From assembly GCA_012841255.1 (NCBI GenBank), contig DUUZ01000040.1, positions 1-28,574 of the forward strand: a stretch of DNA of 28,574 nt, in the 5' to 3' direction. The notes below the pieces were generated by a model. It had not been told where the DNA came from and did no database searches. It saw only the letters and a list, made by a program, of their open reading frames with translations. This stretch comes from Clostridiaceae bacterium. Lineage in GTDB: Bacteria; Bacillota; Clostridia; Saccharofermentanales; DTU023. Positions 7,667-28,574 of the stretch are shown in pieces. The first letter of the stretch is position 1, and the number at the start of each line of letters is the position of its first letter. A program made the position numbers and the translations under genes.

Positions 7667-7709
7667 CTCTTATGCAAATAGCTCTCCCCGCCCCCCAAGT
7701 GGATAATGT

Positions 7710-7850
7710 GTAATCAGGTAGCCCGACTTAGTCTGCCCTGTAAGGCTGAGACATCACGGTTATTGGGATAGTTCGGAATTCTCATCCGATTCCCCCCGGA
7801 ATCTTTACGATTCCGCGCCGAAGCGAAAAACACACGCTATATTCATTTGT
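7710..7850 (-). ncRNA. Cobalamin riboswitch (compact variant); boundaries approximate
   Basis: Minus strand reads GGGGAAUCGG-AUGAGAAU-UCCGAACUAUCCCAAUAACCGUGA...UAAGUCGGGCUACCUG. This resembles the GGGAA / T-loop / CCC..AC.GU / AAG.C.G..ACCUG pattern. It precedes a terminator and a corrinoid transport/salvage operon. Confidence 0.8.
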
Positions 7851-10434: not shown

Positions 10435-10463
10435 ACGGGAATCGGATATTATCCAACACCTCA

Positions 10464-10624
10464 GATAGCGCTCCACATAAGCTTGTGACAGTCCGGCAGA
10501 TCTTCTCTGCCGTCCCAGCACCGGAAGACAAGGCCGTCTTGCCGGAACTTCGGCGGTTTCCCCTTTCATGCCTGCGGCGGCCTTGCCGGATGCTGACATT
10601 ACTCTTTGAAACCGCGCCTCTATC
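10464..10624 (-). ncRNA. Lysine riboswitch (L-box)
   Basis: Conserved blocks in order on the minus strand: gauaGAGGCGC, GAGUA, AAAGGG, GCCGAA, UGGG, ACUGUC, GGAGCGCUauc. P1 closure GAUA/UAUC is present. Confidence 0.93.
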
Positions 10625-10645
10625 GAAAGCGATTCAATTTTCAGC

Positions 10646-16795: not shown

Positions 16796-17719
16796 CTACA
16801 TATAACAGCGTTCCATCCATTCCGGCTTGGACTTGTCCGTATAAACCGTGTACTTGGAGATCAGGGCAACCGGACCGTAGGTCATCTTGGACTGGCGGAG
16901 GCCGGGGTCTCCGTTGTCGTCCTCCCGGTTGACGTAGGCGATGGACTCAGCGTCGCCGAACATCTGCATGAACTCTGAAACCAGCATCTGGTAAACCCCC
17001 CGGTGGCGGACATCGGCCTTTTCCACGTGGACGTAGAGGGTATCTCCCTCGATCTCAGCCAGGGAGAAGCCGGCTACATCATCGCCGACGAAAAGGACGC
17101 CCCCGAACATGCCGTAGTCCTGCATGTTGTGCAGGACCTCCCGGATCTTGCGGGCCTCCTCTTTCAGGGTGCTGTTATCGGGCGGATTGTCCGCTTCCAC
17201 GGCACAGGCAAAATTGCAGACAGCCTCGAGATTATCCTGGTTGATCATCTCGAAGCGCCAGTCGGGGATGCTCCTCAAAAAGCGGTTGATATTATTTCTG
17301 GTCGCCCGGTGCTTGCCGCCTTTCAGCTGGAGGAGGTCCCGGGCGTCATAAAGATAGTCGAAATAGTCCCGTTCGGAGACCGCATGAAATTCGGGGTAGC
17401 GCTGGGAGAGAAGGGGGAGATCCTGATCTCCGACGATGCAGAAAACAAGAGGTTCCCCGATTTCTTCACAGTGCGCTTCCAGAAGAGCCAGGGCTTCCTC
17501 CCGGTTGTTACCGAGAGGAACCGTAAATGCTGTGTGGGTATCAAAGATCCGCATGCTGGTGATCAGGCAGTCTGCCGCAATCACGAACTCGTTCTTGAAC
17601 CAGTCCCGCCACATGAAGATCCCTCCGACCGTGAGGTCGCAGAGTCTTTGGGGGTTGGGGGTCAGGTAGGGCCTGACCAGTGGGATGTGCTTTAATTCAA
17701 GCGGTTGAAAATCCAACAT
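16796..17719 (-). CDS. Stand-alone DUF2156 protein (aminoacyl-phosphatidylglycerol synthase-like, tandem GNAT fold)
   Basis: DYLY...L..LKGGK...RNNINRF, HVEKAD...GVYQ and NREDD.G..GLRQSK.TY.P motifs; no transmembrane segments. Confidence 0.8.
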   Translation of the reverse strand: MLDFQPLELKHIPLVRPYLTPNPQRLCDLTVGGIFMWRDWFKNEFVIAADCLITSMRIFDTHTAFTVPLGNNREEALALLEAHCEEIGEPLVFCIVGDQDLPLLSQRYPEFHAVSERDYFDYLYDARDLLQLKGGKHRATRNNINRFLRSIPDWRFEMINQDNLEAVCNFACAVEADNPPDNSTLKEEARKIREVLHNMQDYGMFGGVLFVGDDVAGFSLAEIEGDTLYVHVEKADVRHRGVYQMLVSEFMQMFGDAESIAYVNREDDNGDPGLRQSKMTYGPVALISKYTVYTDKSKPEWMERCYM

Positions 17720-21503: not shown

Positions 21504-22427
21504 CTACATGGCGGCGATGGCTCCGTCCGAACAGGCGGTGACCACCTGGCGGAGCGGTTTCTTCCGGATATCACCGGCGGCGTAGACGCCCTTGACATTG
21601 GTCCGCATTTCTTCGTCGGTCAGAATGTAGTTGTACTCCATGTCGATGACATCGCGGAAAAGTTCGGAGTTGGGCAGGAAGCCGATGAAAACGAATACAC
21701 CGAACATGCCGTCTTCCTCATCTGCCTCGAGCCGGGTCAGCTCGCCGGTCTTGACATTCTTGACTGTCATGGCGGACAGGACTCCGTCATCACCATGGAG
21801 CTCCTCGACCACCGAATCCCAGAGGAATTCGATCTTATCGTTGGCAAAGGCCCGTTCACGGATGGACTGGACAGCCCGCAGTTCATCCCGGCGGTGAACG
21901 ATGGTCACCTTGCGAGCGAACTTGGTCAGGTACATGGCTTCTTCAACGGCAGTATCGCCGCCGCCGATCACGTAGACTTCCAGGTCTTCAAAGAAAGAGC
22001 CGTCGCAGGTGGCGCAGTAGGAAACACCGCGTCCCACCAGATCCGCCTCACCCGGGCAGCCGATGGGCCTGGGGTGGGCTCCCGAGGCAATGATGACAGC
22101 CTTGGATTCACGAACCCCTTCACGGGTGTGGACGCGTTTGACCGGCCCTTCCAGTTCGACACGGGTCACGTCAGCAGACAGGCGCTCGACGCCGAAGTGG
22201 GCCACCTGGGCGGTCATGCGGGCGATGAGCTCAGCTCCGCTTTCAATCTTTTCGGGGCCTGACAGGCCGCCGGGGTAATTTTCAATTTCATCGGTGATGG
22301 CGATTTGGCCGCCGTCCGGACCGCGTTCGATCAGGAGCGTATCCAGGCGCGAGCGCCCGGCGTACAGTCCGGCGGTCAGGCCGGCCGGACCGGCCCCGAT
22401 GATGATAAGGTCATAAATCTTGTCCAT
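21504..22427 (-). CDS. trxB: Thioredoxin reductase; the frame ends at a TAG that appears premature
   Basis: GAGPAG, GVSYCATCDG, GGGDTA, HRRD..RA and YAAGDIR motifs. It ends at DGAIAAM, followed by TAG and 11 more sense codons. Confidence 0.92.
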   Translation of the reverse strand: MDKIYDLIIIGAGPAGLTAGLYAGRSRLDTLLIERGPDGGQIAITDEIENYPGGLSGPEKIESGAELIARMTAQVAHFGVERLSADVTRVELEGPVKRVHTREGVRESKAVIIASGAHPRPIGCPGEADLVGRGVSYCATCDGSFFEDLEVYVIGGGDTAVEEAMYLTKFARKVTIVHRRDELRAVQSIRERAFANDKIEFLWDSVVEELHGDDGVLSAMTVKNVKTGELTRLEADEEDGMFGVFVFIGFLPNSELFRDVIDMEYNYILTDEEMRTNVKGVYAAGDIRKKPLRQVVTACSDGAIAAM

Positions 22428-22457
22428 GACTGATCCTTCCTGCGGCCAGGCCGCTGT

Positions 22458-23765
22458 TTATTCAAAGATGGTCTGATCAGTGACTTCCGTCATCAGGGCC
22501 TTCAGGGCCTTGTCGATCAGTTCGCTTCGCAGTTTGTACTCTTCCTCCGGGGACAGATCAGGCTTGCCCAGGGGGTAGGGGATGGCCACTGTGGGGACGA
22601 TTCTGTTGGCGCCGACTGTCAGTGAGATCGGGGTGACCGTGCACATGTGGACAACCGGGATGCCTGCGCGTTCAATTTCCTTAACCATTGTTGCACCGCA
22701 ACGTGTACAGGTTCCTCAGGTCGAGGTAAGGATGACGGCATCCACTCCTTGTGAAACAAGCTTCTCTGCAATATCCACTGCAAAGCGCTTGGAGTTGGCA
22801 ACGGAGGTGCCGTTGCCAACGGTGGAGTAGAACCAGTTGTGCAGCTTGCCGATCTTGCCGTCCTTTTCGTACTGGCGGAGAACGTCGACGGGGACCACGC
22901 GGTCTGCATCCTCATTGGCATAGACCGGGTCATAACCGCCGTGGGCCGTCTCATAGGTCTCGGCTGTCAGATCGTCGACACCCTCGATATTATAGGCACC
23001 ATATTTGGTTGCGGAAGAACTCTCGATACGGTCGGGGTTGCCCTTGGGAACGATCCCGCCCGAGGTCACGATGGCGATTTGTGCCTTGGTGATATCCTTG
23101 ATGGCCGGCTGGGGTTCCACCCGGTCGAAGGAAGGCATGGGGTACTCCGTGACAAAGGGTTTGTCGGCCAGCTTCTTCATGAGCATGTTGACCGCACGGG
23201 CAGCGCCGCGCTCCTTGTCGAAGAAGTTCTTGCGAATGCCGTTAGGCAGGTAGCCGTCCTCGATGGAGGCGCCGATGGCTTCACCGGTCATCAGCTTCAG
23301 GCCCAGCTTGGCCATGAGCGGAACGACTTTTCTCATGCCGGCGGCATTGTCGCCGGTAGCGATGGTGTAGACCTTCTCGCGGAACATATCCGCTCCGGGG
23401 TTCTCTTCGTACATGCCGGTGACGGCGGGAATCCCCAGCTCTGTCTGGACGGCATCGGCGATGGTGCCGCAGGCGACACCGTAACGGCCGGCGTTGAAGG
23501 CGGGACCTGCAACGAAGAGGTCGGGTTTTTCTTCACGGACCATCTCAAGGACCAGGGCTTTCGCCGTTTCCAGATTCTCATTGAACCAGGAGTCCCCGGA
23601 GATGATGGTGGCGGTGATTTCAGCCTTGTCGCCGAAGGCCTGCTGGAAGGCGATGCCCGGGCCGACCGGCCCCTGGCGTTTTTCAGCCGGGAAATCCGCC
23701 ATGTCTTCGCTGCCGATCTGGCCGAAGAACTGATTGATATAATGAACGACCTTGAATTTACTCAC
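22458..23765 (-). CDS. grdB: Glycine reductase selenoprotein B (435 aa; UGA=Sec at codon 350, nt 22718-22716)
   Basis: VVHYINQFFGQIG, AGPAFNAGRYG and ILTST-U-GTCTRCGATMVKEIER motifs. ORFs 22716..23765 and 22458..22688 are in the same frame. Glycine versus sarcosine (GrdF) specificity cannot be fully resolved by eye. Confidence 0.9.
22690..22702 (-). promoter_or_regulatory. Putative SECIS hairpin of grdB
   Basis: GUUGC-GGU-GCAAC begins 13 nt after the UGA. Confidence 0.55.
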
Positions 23766-23775
23766 CGTATCCTCC

Positions 23776-25059
23776 TTAGCGTGCGCTCATGTGGTTGAAA
23801 CCAAGCTCATTGGTTGCCCCGATGATGACCTGGATTTCTGCTTCAATGGACCCGTCGGGACGGAGGGAGCCGTCATGGCCGCCTGCGATTGTATCGACAT
23901 AATCGAGTGTCCCGATGATGTGATCCATGGGAGGCAGCACGATGGTCTCGTTGGCATTGCCTGCGGAGACGACCGCATTGGCCAGTTCATCCGCGTCGGC
24001 CAGGGACTGGCTCTTGCCATCCTGTCCGGCATATTCATCCGTCACGATAACGGTTTTAATGCCCTTCTTCTCCAGTTTGGTGCAGTTCATGATCAGGTCG
24101 GTATCGGGGTTGCCGAAGCCTTCCTGGCTGATGATGGCACCGTCGAAGGGCAGGAATCCCGCCATATCCGCCGTCCAGTCCGAGGAACGGATCTTGTCTG
24201 ACAGATAAACGGTTTCGTTGGTGATGATCATCCCGACGAAGTTCAGGGTCTTGCCGTGGCGGGCCAGAAGTTCTTCGATGATGGGATTGTTGAGGTGGTG
24301 GTAGGTGGTGTTCTTGTCACAGGCCGACACGCAGTTGCCGGAGACGATGGCACCGTCCATCAGCTCGGTGGGGCGGATCAGGGTCGACAGGGTTCTCTTG
24401 GCGTCAACACCGTAAACGTAGGTGTCGTGCAGGAGGCCCTGGCTTTGCAGCATCATGACATAGCCGACCCGGGGCAGGCCGCGGAGTTTGGCGTCAAAGG
24501 TCTCGGCGATGGTCGGCGTCTCATAGACAACCGTCTCGTCCGGCGCAATATTGCGGGCCAGTTCACCGACGGTCACGGCGATTTTCAGGCCGGCCAGGCG
24601 GGCTGCTTTTTCATACTCGTGGGGATGGATCCCTTCTGCAGGCTCCATGACGAGGACCAGGTTGTGTGTTTTCGAGAAGGGGGTGTAGTCGGCACCGGGG
24701 CCTGACATGTCGATGATCCCCTCCTGGAAGCCGACGATCTTGCCGGCGGTCACCACAGCCATGCCGCGCATGACGTGGGTCTTGCCTGAACCGACACGGT
24801 CAACCTTGGAGATGACGCCGGGGAAAATACCGCCCGGGCCTTCCACCTTGACTCTGGGTTCAATAACGTCCTTGACGGGAGTAATCCGTGTTTTTTCACC
24901 CGGTGACGCGATTTCAAAACGCGCCGCCTTGATATGCGGATCTTCCAGGACCTGTTCGATCAGCGTATCCGGATTGACGACAAGCACGCGGTCTTCAACG
25001 GCGTTGTATGTGCCGAACCGGATGCCTTTGATGTCAATATAGCCTAATTCCAGTTTCAC
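23776..25059 (-). CDS. grdE: Glycine reductase protein B proprotein
   Basis: MKLELG.I; ITPVKDVIEPR; GIIDMSGPGA; GNCVSACDKN (Cys cleavage/pyruvoyl site); EGFGNPD; DEYAGQDG. GTG start. Confidence 0.9.
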   Translation of the reverse strand: MKLELGYIDIKGIRFGTYNAVEDRVLVVNPDTLIEQVLEDPHIKAARFEIASPGEKTRITPVKDVIEPRVKVEGPGGIFPGVISKVDRVGSGKTHVMRGMAVVTAGKIVGFQEGIIDMSGPGADYTPFSKTHNLVLVMEPAEGIHPHEYEKAARLAGLKIAVTVGELARNIAPDETVVYETPTIAETFDAKLRGLPRVGYVMMLQSQGLLHDTYVYGVDAKRTLSTLIRPTELMDGAIVSGNCVSACDKNTTYHHLNNPIIEELLARHGKTLNFVGMIITNETVYLSDKIRSSDWTADMAGFLPFDGAIISQEGFGNPDTDLIMNCTKLEKKGIKTVIVTDEYAGQDGKSQSLADADELANAVVSAGNANETIVLPPMDHIIGTLDYVDTIAGGHDGSLRPDGSIEAEIQVIIGATNELGFNHMSAR

Positions 25060-25759: not shown

Positions 25760-28189
25760 CTATCTTAACTCCGCCCCCAGTATATGCTTGAGTTTTTTCA
25801 AAATCCGTTTACGCATTTCCTCGATGTCTTCGGCCGTCAGGGTTTTCTCATCCGAAGCCAGCCAGAAGCGGAACATGAGGGATTTCTTGCCTTCCGGCAC
25901 CTGGCTGCCCCGGTACTCCTCAACAAATTCGGAACGGCGGACATGGGAGGCCACTGCCTTTTCGATATCGGCCCAGGACACCTCTTCGCCGACAATGACC
26001 GACAGATCCTGTTCAACCAGGGGGAAGTGGGGCAGCGGCCGGAATTCATTGTGGCGGCTGGGAAGAGGCAGGAGCTTGTCTGCATCGATCTCAGCTGCCG
26101 CCGCAAAGAGCTGGCGGATACCGGAAGAGCTTGTGGCCCTGGGCGACAAGAGGCCCATGCGGCCGACGGTCTCTCCCCGGCCGTTGACCAGATTAAGCCA
26201 GGCCTGGCGATCCGCCCAGGGGGCTTTTTCACCTTCCCGGGTAAAGGACCAGTTTTCGGTTCTCCCGTAGCGGGGCAGGCCGGACAGGATTCCTTTCAGA
26301 CGGCGGAAGAGCAGGAGAGGCATGCTGCCGGTCAGGATCATCCCCAGCTTTTTGTTTTGCAGCGGCAGTGTCTCTTCAGGGACGCTGGGATGGCTTTCTC
26401 CCTTGTGGAAAACCTGGGCCATTTCAAAAAGGCCGAAACCGTCGTAGAAGCGGGAGTTCTCTGCTGCCGCTTCCATGAGTCCGGGGATCAGGGAGCCGCG
26501 CAGGAAGGCCTGTTCAGGCGAGGGCGGAGTCGAAAGGACCAGAAGGTCTTCCGTCTTCTCTCCGGCAGCTTCCAGGAAACGGCTGTCCGCCCAGGGATAG
26601 GTGAAGATTTCCTGCAGGCCGGCATGGAAGGCCAGGTATTCCCGGATGGCCCGTTCACTTTCATAGTCCAGCTGACGGACCGGGCGTTCCAGGGTGATGA
26701 CGGGCGGGACAAAGGCAAAGTGCTGGTAGCCGATCATGCGGCAGACTTCTTCCAGGATGTCGTCCTTGATGCTGACATCCCCCGTGGACCGCCAGACCGG
26801 CACCTTGACCGTCAGGGTATCCTGGCCGTCGAAGCTTGTTTCAAATCCCAGGGGCTGCAAGGTTGAGACGACTTCATCTGCGGAAAGCGCCCGGCCCGAG
26901 CGGACATTGAGAAAGTGGAGTGAAACGGGCAAAGTGACCGTCTCTGTCTCTTTTGCATGCTGGCGGCCGGTATGGGAGATGAGGGCTTGCGGCTGCAGTT
27001 CCCCCATCAGTTCGATCATGAGCGCCAGGGCCAGGTCGGCCCGTCTCGTATCAATGGCCTTTTCAAAGCGTGTGGAAGCTTCCGTCCGAAGCTGATGGCG
27101 GGCTGCCGTTTTCCGGATGCCGATGGCCTCGAAGTTGGCCACCTCCAGAACCATGCCGGTCGTTTCCGGCAGGATGGAGTCCAGCGCCCCGCCCATGACG
27201 CCGGCCAGGCCGATGGGCTTGTCCTTGCCGTCGCAGATCAGGAGGTCTTCCCTGTCAAGTTCAAGCTTATGGCCGTCCAGAAGCTCCAAAAGTTCGCCCT
27301 CCCGGGCCAGGCGGACATGAATCCCCTCTTCGACGTGGTCGCGGTCGAAGGCGTGGGTGGGCTGGCCGGTGGCCAGCATGACATAGTTGGTCAGGTCGAC
27401 CAGGACATTGATGGGCCGCATGCCGACGGACCAGACGGCCCGTTTCAGCCAGAAGGGGGAGTCGTCCGGCCGGACCCCGTCGAATACCACGGCATCGTAA
27501 CGGCGGCAGCGGTCTGTGTCACTGATCCGGACCTCATAGGGCAGGGCCTCTGGGATTTCCAATTCCGGCAGAGTTTGAAGCGTCTTGCCGTACATGGCGG
27601 CAAATTCGCGGGCGATGCCGTAGTGGCCCCAAAGATCGGGCCGGTTGGTCAGGGATTTATTGTCGATCTCGATGATGGTATCATCCAGGCAGAGGAGATC
27701 CGCCAGAGGTTCTCCCGGCAGCGCCTCCGGAAAATCCGGGGTCAGATCCAGGATAATGGCCTCCTCAGGGGCGGGGAAGAGGTCCCCCAGGTTAATTTCC
27801 CCTGAACTGCAGATCATGCCTTCACTCAGTTCCCCGCGGAGTTTGGTCGCCTTCAGTTCGACGGGCTCCCCTTCCCCGTGCCAGCGGACAAAGCTTCCGG
27901 GCGGGGCAACGGCAACCAGCTGGCCCTCGAAGAGGTTGGTGCCGCCGCAGACGATCTGGCTGGGCTCTTCATTCCCGATGTCCACCTGGCAGACGCGGAG
28001 AAGATCGGCGTTGGGGTGGGGGCGGACCGTCAGGACACGGCCCGCGATGATCCCGTCCACCAGGAGGGCGGGGTTCTCCAAAGCCTCGACTTCCACGGTC
28101 CGCATGGTCAGATCGAAGGCAATCTGCTCGGGAGTGATATCCTCCGGCAGGTCAACATATTCACGAATCCAGTTTAAAGAGACTTTCAC
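25760..28189 (-). CDS. pheT: Phenylalanine--tRNA ligase beta subunit
   Basis: MKVSLNW, QIVCGG.N, GELSEGMICS, TNRPDLWGHYGIARE, GQPTHAFD, DI.EEV.R..GY, and a C-terminal anticodon-binding domain (KKSL...TL...LR). GTG start with RBS GGAGG. Confidence 0.95.
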   Translation of the reverse strand: MKVSLNWIREYVDLPEDITPEQIAFDLTMRTVEVEALENPALLVDGIIAGRVLTVRPHPNADLLRVCQVDIGNEEPSQIVCGGTNLFEGQLVAVAPPGSFVRWHGEGEPVELKATKLRGELSEGMICSSGEINLGDLFPAPEEAIILDLTPDFPEALPGEPLADLLCLDDTIIEIDNKSLTNRPDLWGHYGIAREFAAMYGKTLQTLPELEIPEALPYEVRISDTDRCRRYDAVVFDGVRPDDSPFWLKRAVWSVGMRPINVLVDLTNYVMLATGQPTHAFDRDHVEEGIHVRLAREGELLELLDGHKLELDREDLLICDGKDKPIGLAGVMGGALDSILPETTGMVLEVANFEAIGIRKTAARHQLRTEASTRFEKAIDTRRADLALALMIELMGELQPQALISHTGRQHAKETETVTLPVSLHFLNVRSGRALSADEVVSTLQPLGFETSFDGQDTLTVKVPVWRSTGDVSIKDDILEEVCRMIGYQHFAFVPPVITLERPVRQLDYESERAIREYLAFHAGLQEIFTYPWADSRFLEAAGEKTEDLLVLSTPPSPEQAFLRGSLIPGLMEAAAENSRFYDGFGLFEMAQVFHKGESHPSVPEETLPLQNKKLGMILTGSMPLLLFRRLKGILSGLPRYGRTENWSFTREGEKAPWADRQAWLNLVNGRGETVGRMGLLSPRATSSSGIRQLFAAAAEIDADKLLPLPSRHNEFRPLPHFPLVEQDLSVIVGEEVSWADIEKAVASHVRRSEFVEEYRGSQVPEGKKSLMFRFWLASDEKTLTAEDIEEMRKRILKKLKHILGAELR

Positions 28190-28199
28190 GCTGCCCCTC

Positions 28200-28574
28200 C
28201 TATTTGAACTGTTCCAGGAAGCGCAGGTCGGCGCTGTGGAACAAGCGGACGTCGTCGATGCCGTAGCGCATCATGACCAGGCGGTCCAGTCCGATATTAA
28301 TGTAGAAACCGCTCCAGATATCGGGGTCAAGGCCCGCCGCCCGCAGGACGTTGGGGTGGGGGGAGCCGCCGGGCATGACCTCGATCCAGCCGCTGTGGTG
28401 GCAGACCGGGCAGCCCTGGCCCATACAGACCTGACATTCCATGTCAATTTCGAAGCCCGGTTCCACGAAGGGGAAGAAGCCCGCCCGCATACGCACCGGG
28501 ACATCGTGGCCGAAGACCCGCTCCAGGATGGTCTGGACCAGGATCAGACCGGACGAAAAGGAATAATCGCGGTC
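28200..28574 (-). CDS. pheS: Phenylalanine--tRNA ligase alpha subunit, C-terminal part (gene starts beyond the window end); divergent active-site motifs
   Basis: Open frame from 28574: FFPFVEPG, CxxC-x4-CxxC zinc ribbon, HPNVL, GLDRLVMMRYGIDDVR.F...DLRFLEQF. Lies directly upstream of pheT. Confidence 0.9.
   Translation of the reverse strand, partial: DRDYSFSSGLILVQTILERVFGHDVPVRMRAGFFPFVEPGFEIDMECQVCMGQGCPVCHHSGWIEVMPGGSPHPNVLRAAGLDPDIWSGFYINIGLDRLVMMRYGIDDVRLFHSADLRFLEQFK

Follow-up and report, generated by a model that had tools for sequence, protein, structure and literature searches.

A conserved, patchily distributed phenylalanyl-tRNA synthetase subtype with a probably re-lined phenylalanine pocket

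Ala294 of PheS, the phenylalanyl-tRNA synthetase (PheRS) alpha subunit (E. coli numbering is used throughout), is the standard specificity gate of the enzyme, the basis of pheS* counter-selection and a starting point for non-canonical amino acids. In the 28,574-nt stretch of DNA analysed here (the window), which is the complete contig C238 of a metagenome-assembled genome (MAG; 1.31 Mb, 273 contigs, 74% complete), the 3′ end of a pheS gene encodes tyrosine at this position. The original prediction, made from the window alone, read the gene as a functional but non-canonical synthetase that could have a different substrate, a different binding mode or inhibitor resistance, perhaps as a second copy beside a canonical pheST. 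We asked which of these readings fits the locus and its relatives. As judged from sequence comparison, the window very probably carries part of the organism's single housekeeping PheRS, which belongs to a distinct and conserved subtype with a re-lined pocket and still charges Phe. A natural, widespread and essential PheRS with Tyr at 294 would represent a second way to build a Phe pocket.

The pheST locus and conservation of its pocket substitutions

The window ends within pheS (Table 1). On the minus strand the frame is open as far as the TAG at 28202-28200, and the 5′ part of the gene lies on contig C177, where the gap between pheS and the upstream ORF is only 84 nt. Together the two pieces give a single pheS of 345 codons. 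The contig break within the gene leaves a 48-nt overlap (window 28527-28574 with C177 1-48) containing one synonymous mismatch, which probably stems from strain heterogeneity. Minus-strand translation confirmed the motif readings of the original prediction and the position of its Glu codon (28382-28380): the window piece reads WIEVMPGGSPHP and SGFYINIGLDR, and W-I-E-V-M-P-G-G-S-P-H-P spans 28388 to 28353. For the second motif the residues had been read correctly, but the range assigned to it, 28310-28290, covers G-F-Y-I-N-I-G only; the full S-G-F-Y-I-N-I-G-L-D-R spans 28313 to 28281 (Tyr codon TAC at 28304-28302; Asn codon AAT at 28298-28296). The surrounding scaffold, described as intact, was found in full (FPFVEPG, the four-Cys ribbon, RLVMMRYGIDDVR and DLRFLEQFK), and HMMER alignments place the zinc-ribbon insert in P. 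aeruginosa and Staphylococcus PheS as well.

Table 1. Positions of the pheST genes, their motifs and other features of the window (window coordinates unless a contig is named)
Feature	Position	Strand	Remarks
pheS 3′ part, 124 C-terminal codons + TAG stop	28200..28574	-	PF01409 108 bits on fragment
pheS 5′ part, 237 codons	contig C177:1-711	-	PF01409 120 bits on fragment
FPFVEPG loop	28455..28475	-	E. coli F248, F250 counterparts retained
Zinc-ribbon insert CxxC-x5-CxxC	28401..28436	-	Common in bacterial PheS
MPGGSPHP strand	28353..28376	-	L270M, G271P, C272G, M274S, V275P (E. coli numbering)
Motif 3 strand GFYINIGLDR	28281..28310	-	A294Y and G296N; motif-3 Arg kept
pheT, 809 codons, GTG start 10 nt after pheS stop	25760..28189	-	TIGR00472 585 bits, cut-off 402.65
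grdE-like component B gene	23776-25059		
grdB, selenoprotein B	22455-23765	-	In-frame UGA (Sec350, 22716-22718)
SECIS_4 element (Rfam)	22678-22715		Immediately after the grdB UGA
Thioredoxin-reductase-like gene	21504-22427		
307-residue protein, LPG_synthase_C domain	16796-17719	-	Without membrane flippase part
Lysine riboswitch	10458-10630	-	Rfam 96.8 bits
Cobalamin riboswitch	7696-7848	-	Rfam 34.6 bits

As a full-length stand-in for the split gene we used the PheS of a congener (L005:1501-2535:-; 93% identical to the window PheS), which was aligned by HMMER with E. coli-type, P. aeruginosa and Staphylococcus PheS. Tyr falls opposite Ala294 and Asn opposite Gly296 of E. coli, and the alignment is gap-free nearby. 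Comparison of 129 clade members with 46 canonical PheS sequences revealed ∼30 positions specific to the clade; at 15 of them all 129 members agree. The changes include H155M, T168P, T170L, S171T, Q174S, A189Y, P204R, M209Y, L223G, F243M, S246G, G271P, C272G, V275P, A294Y, G296N and F316H. The changes touch four of the seven named residues of the E. coli pocket: where the canonical Phe-pocket signature has S171, Q174, A294 and G296, the variant has T, S, Y and N. Likewise, the neighbouring strand reads MPGGxPHP instead of LG[AC]GMVHP. Position 294 is Y in 125 members and F in four, position 296 is N in 128 of 129, P271 and G272 are universal (129/129), and P275 is found in 113 of 129. The motif 2 Arg, the motif 3 Arg, F206, Q208, E210 and the FPF-loop residues F248 and F250 are kept (invariant across the alignment). 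What had been described as coordinated changes with no frameshift is thus a set conserved across the clade, in an open frame.

In the E. coli pocket, F248 and F250 stack on the substrate ring, and S171, Q174, Q208, E210 and G296 line one wall (PMC9050441). The A294 methyl group sits at the para position of Phe; A294G widens the pocket, whereas A294S narrows it enough that even p-fluoro-Phe is rejected (PMC9050441). The effects of A294G and T251G on E. coli PheRS have also been described (PMC3275996), and the size of the residue at 294 sets the tolerance for para substituents in E. coli PheS (PMC3275996, PMC9050441). Because A294S alone already rejects p-fluoro-Phe, Tyr at 294 would need real rearrangement of the pocket. 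The variant is changed at the same position as the relaxed (A294G) and restricted (A294S) E. coli mutants, but unlike these laboratory substitutions its Tyr (or Phe) is natural, fixed and apparently part of a co-adapted set.

The split of the gene over two contigs, with a mismatch in their overlap, could be taken as a sign that the substitutions are sequencing or assembly artefacts, or that the gene is decaying. The chance of this verges on negligible, given that more than 200 independent sequences carry these residues, that the frame is open and that the overlap mismatch is synonymous. MPGG[SA]PHP and GF[YF]INIGLDR are present in all 21 matched same-genus genomes (84-94% identity), and the variant motifs were found in all of the best 120 homologues from a 5.8-billion-protein collection and in 80 of 80 loci from named genomes, where a few actinomycete copies read GCY[VL]N.

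Family assignment, copy number and evidence for phenylalanine charging

By fold, catalytic residues, partner, copy number and regulation, the window PheS is a bacterial PheRS alpha subunit. The class II PheRS core and the N-terminal coiled-coil domain are both present (PF01409 242 bits and PF02912 75 bits, respectively, in the congener). On the NCBIfam pheS equivalog model, TIGR00468, the congener scores 227.3 bits, under the 237.45 cut-off (E. coli PheS, 401.8), so that automatic naming of the clade rests on other evidence. An AlphaFold model of the congener (pLDDT 85.7 overall, 88-92 on both pocket strands) superposes on the bacterial PheRS alpha core with a TM of 0.90 and an rmsd of 3.5-3.7 Å. 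Three PDB PheS alignments are all canonical at the pocket strand and motif 3, and the remaining PDB PheS matches are presumably of the GFAFG type too; we know of no solved structure from the variant subtype. Like the canonical (alpha-beta)2 PheRSs (E. coli 3PCO, T. thermophilus 1B70/1B7Y, P. aeruginosa 4P71), the variant has the same domain order in both subunits, the catalytic-core fold, the motif 2 and 3 Arg, the FPF loop, Gln208, Glu210, the PheT editing residues, the pheS-pheT operon and, in some Bacillota, a Phe T-box.

Membership in SrmL (NF051887), the ‘PheS-related mystery ligase’, was rejected at 101 bits against a cut-off of 300. Altered pocket residues on a PheS-like class II core are seen in SrmL too, but the window protein has a complete PheT as its partner, and no other PheRS was found in its genome.

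The window PheT contains all five Pfam domains (tRNA_bind, B3/4, B5, core-like and FDX-ACB). Its editing residues are kept at eight of eight positions (R244, N254, H265, G315, G318, E334, T354 and A356), which rules out that better Tyr rejection has made editing dispensable. The roles of these residues have been described, including that of Glu334, which reads the Tyr hydroxyl (PMC8599791). In the anticodon domain, the motif reads FVEEYRG...KKS in place of LFDVYRG...YKS, a form typical of the clade in which the Tyr and Lys-Ser are kept, and the genome encodes an ordinary tRNA-Phe(GAA) with A73. Retention of the PheT domains and of tRNA-Phe recognition, as originally predicted, agrees with all of these features. 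The B2 tRNA_bind domain (OB-fold) is kept in the window PheT. Of the 79 aligned PheT rows, 18 lack it. Most of these come from Acidobacteriota and actinomycetes, and the 18 rows represent 16 distinct loci (L070, L071, L075, L085, L088, L092, L097, L099-L103, L105, L106, L111 and L112), as L119 and L123 are re-fetches of L105 and L112.

Regulation points to the same amino acid. A T-box leader lies directly upstream of the variant pheS in three genomes (L041, L048 and L029), and in all three the specifier is UUC, followed by A. The L029 genome belongs to the window's order, is 99% complete and has the variant as its only PheS. An Rfam scan of C177, which carries the pheS 5′ region, matched no family, so no T-box was found in the window genome.

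A Pfam PF01409 search of the MAG found one PheS gene (its two halves), and the search of this 74%-complete MAG for a second or archaeal-type PheRS returned only an 18-bit match, below the family cut-off. Among the 21 matched congeners, whose completeness reaches 97%, a single PheS was found in each, always the variant. Five near-complete variant-bearing relatives (one single-contig, one 99% complete) have one strong PF01409 match each, and when they were searched for further PheRSs the only matches were of 16-23 bits, in ORFs of 470-620 residues that are taken to be other class II synthetases. The variant is also the only PheS in the Mogibacterium kristiansenii isolate (PF01409 search) and in MAGs of Vicinamibacterales (Acidobacteriota), Anaerolineaceae (Chloroflexota), Pseudomonadales (Pseudomonadota) and Patescibacteria. 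Since the window MAG is incomplete and actinomycetes carry both types (see below), a canonical pheST might sit in the missing 26%, leaving the window copy as a second or specialised enzyme. We consider this highly improbable: the congeners show one match each, and the near-complete relatives, including the single-contig genome, have only the variant by family-model search. The proposal of a second copy beside a canonical pheST therefore finds no support in the window's genome, its congeners and these relatives.

Replacement of four of the seven named pocket residues, including the para-position gate, together with the score under the pheS equivalog cut-off, could instead indicate a changed amino-acid specificity, either a non-Phe substrate or a dual one. 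This too is very unlikely, because many genomes, from several phyla, have the variant as their only PheRS, the T-box specifier is the Phe codon UUC, the editing site is intact including Glu334, and F248, F250, Q208 and E210 are kept. The wide occurrence of the motifs in genomes with the variant as their only PheRS is an outcome that the original prediction had itself named as counting against its reading, and on this point it does so. The sole copy, the T-box UUC, the editing site, the catalytic residues and the tRNA-Phe all indicate that the variant enzyme almost certainly charges tRNA-Phe with Phe. It does look functional but non-canonical, as first described, in that the catalytic residues and PheT are kept and the pocket signature is lost.

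The most probable account of the variant is as follows. The pheS 3′ end and the pheT that follows it in the window belong to the organism's single housekeeping (alpha-beta)2 PheRS, which keeps the class II catalytic machinery and the FPF loop but departs from canonical enzymes in the rest of its Phe pocket. The ‘hydrophilic wall’ is altered by S171T, Q174S and G296N and the para-position floor by A294Y, with the neighbouring strand (G271P, C272G and V275P) and scattered residues of the catalytic domain (L223G, F243M, A189Y and M209Y, for example) changing alongside. Large-for-small and small-for-large swaps may compensate for one another, leaving a Phe-shaped cavity of altered geometry. Such an enzyme would activate Phe, charge tRNA-Phe(GAA) and clear Tyr-tRNA-Phe at the PheT editing site.

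Phylogeny and horizontal spread

The suggestion that the FYINI and MPGG motifs might define a conserved clade was borne out by a PheS tree. In this tree the variant sequences group in a single clade (SH-aLRT 98). Its stem is long, at 0.53 plus 0.50 substitutions per site, and the branches inside it are very short despite a span of at least seven phyla (Bacillota, Chloroflexota, Acidobacteriota, Pseudomonadota, Bdellovibrionota, Patescibacteria and Actinomycetota). The sister of the variant clade is a single lineage, P0147, which has P168, T171, the PGG strand and N296, yet Ala294. The next group out reads LPCGLVHP with GFAFG. Such a series suggests a step-by-step re-lining of the pocket in which A294Y was a late change.

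Within the window's order, the variant is carried by the window's genus and by three genera in two other families. Compared over ∼110 aligned residues at the C-terminus, these other-family variants share 77-81% identity with the window PheS, compared with 40-49% for the canonical PheS found in two sister genera of the window's own family and in most others. The canonical PheS of the order lies far from the variant clade in the tree. The PheT proteins that accompany variant PheS likewise group in a single clade (SH-aLRT 100), whose internal topology resembles that of the PheS clade, and the matching PheS and PheT trees argue that the pheST pair moves as a unit and displaced native genes. The variant pheST has evidently replaced the native enzyme in scattered genera, and in the ancestor of the window's genus the incoming pair would have taken the place of a native canonical pheST. 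In one motif-pattern scan the variant was detected in five of 400 evenly sampled genomes of the class (4 of 217 genera), and the reversed-pattern control gave 0 matches. The literature searched on PheRS self-resistance, on a second Streptomyces pheST and on descriptions of the Phe pocket held nothing on the variant subtype, which is conserved, spreads horizontally and apparently has not been described so far.

Second copies in actinomycetes and inhibitor sensitivity

All ten actinomycete genomes tested (from Actinokineospora, Amycolatopsis, Pilimelia, Catenulispora, Streptomyces, Micromonospora, Kutzneria, Rugosimonospora, Rhizocola and Plantactinospora) carry two pheS genes, one canonical (PF01409 304-339 bits) and one variant (225-239 bits), the latter always followed by its own pheT. 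In the PheS tree the actinomycete variants make up a single group, within which the branching disagrees with family taxonomy. A ribosomal-protein context was sought for the canonical actinomycete copy, and the only neighbour checked is a histidine kinase.

In four of the ten genomes the variant adjoins NRPS/PKS clusters, which are of two conserved types. The first is seen in Streptomyces sp. bgisy159 (L125/L126), where a terminal NRPS gene (C-A-PCP-TE) is followed after 239 nt by the variant pheST, in the same orientation and at the cluster edge. This cluster also contains more NRPS genes, a free adenylation enzyme, a class III aminotransferase, a LAL regulator, an AurF-like oxygenase, an MFS transporter and a TE-SnoaL protein. 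Beside its variant copy, a Kutzneria MAG (L136/L137) carries homologues of the NRPS (50% identity) and of the TE-SnoaL gene (56%). The second type is shared by Actinokineospora sp. G85 (L130/L131) and Micromonospora sp. CPCC 205546 (L134/L135), which belong to different families and have the same cluster next to pheST at 51-77% identity (Fmt, a WelO5-like oxygenase, a thioesterase, a 2100-residue NRPS, a KS-PCP-C hybrid and an SHMT-like enzyme). In Rugosimonospora, Rhizocola and Plantactinospora no biosynthetic genes were found near the variant copy, and the neighbours are a NicO transporter, an ABC ATPase, LtrA, a LAL regulator, a STAND-WD40 protein and an MFS transporter. Separately, a PhyH dioxygenase gene paired with a DUF4254 gene, often together with a second PhyH, lies near the variant pheST in two Pilimelia species, a Micromonosporaceae MAG and Catenulispora (L094, L095, L107, L127 and L129).

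Two kinds of precedent are relevant to this distribution. IleRS1 and IleRS2 are two types of one aminoacyl-tRNA synthetase (aaRS) that spread by gene transfer and differ in mupirocin sensitivity, and the ThrRS ObaO of the obafluorin cluster is a cluster-borne immunity copy. The variant PheRS resembles these systems in its patchy occurrence over phyla, in serving some lineages as their only copy and others as an additional one, and in that the second copies of producer-type actinomycetes sit beside NRPS/PKS clusters. Unlike in the IleRS and ThrRS cases, a link between PheRS and self-resistance is here something we infer. A second copy at a biosynthetic cluster is the classic signature of a target-duplicate immunity gene, and on this circumstantial pattern the actinomycete second pheST may be an immunity gene for PheRS-targeting products.

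By extension, the subtype could be intrinsically insensitive to Phe-site inhibitors or to toxic para- or meta-substituted Phe analogues, and this property could have driven its horizontal spread; the window's organism would then carry a housekeeping PheRS that is resistant by nature. We regard this as possible rather than probable. It adds to the explanation of the variant as a Phe-charging housekeeping subtype rather than excluding it. The second pheST beside the canonical one in all ten actinomycete genomes tested is in keeping with insensitivity, as are the bgisy159 copy at an NRPS cluster edge, with the NRPS and TE-SnoaL genes shared by the Kutzneria MAG, and the same cluster beside the copy in G85 and CPCC 205546. 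The short branches over at least seven phyla, with patchy occurrence within families, are as expected for a selected mobile allele, and A294S is known to narrow specificity in E. coli (PMC9050441). However, no inhibitor or product is known for the linked clusters, and actinomycete genomes are dense in biosynthetic clusters, so that some adjacency is expected by chance. Three of the ten genomes have no nearby biosynthetic genes, and four loci (two of them in the ten genomes) show only the PhyH-DUF4254 pair. A cluster-borne aaRS may instead have a biosynthetic role, and none of the literature searched links PheRS to self-resistance or describes a natural PheRS inhibitor.

On balance, the actinomycete second copies beside NRPS/PKS clusters lend indirect support to an altered binding mode or inhibitor sensitivity, both raised by the original prediction, and make them more plausible. 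The double copies and their cluster linkage are a new observation that suggests an inhibitor-insensitive PheRS class. In a fuller and equally tentative version, this class would be naturally insensitive, actinomycetes would keep its members as immunity copies against NRPS/PKS products aimed at the Phe site of canonical PheRS, and a Saccharofermentanales-like genus would have captured the pheST pair and discarded its native enzyme. If so, Tyr294, Asn296, Thr171 and Ser174 would constitute a second structural solution for Phe recognition. PheRS Phe-site inhibitors are in development, and inhibitor complexes of M. tuberculosis, E. coli, A. baumannii and P. aeruginosa PheRS are among the structural matches; a mobile pheST whose Phe site differs could serve as a ready-made source of insensitivity. 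The cluster-linked second copies also offer a handle for genome mining of natural PheRS inhibitors.

The window's own copy is single, and the genes it adjoins are those of an ordinary glycine reductase cluster directly downstream of pheT, not an NRPS/PKS cluster beside a second copy. This glycine reductase cluster comprises a grdE-like component B gene, a grdB gene for selenoprotein B with its Rfam SECIS_4 element and a thioredoxin-reductase-like gene (Table 1). Farther along, the window contains a lysine riboswitch, a cobalamin riboswitch and a gene for a protein that consists of an LPG_synthase_C domain alone, the aminoacyl-tRNA-dependent transferase domain of MprF-type enzymes.
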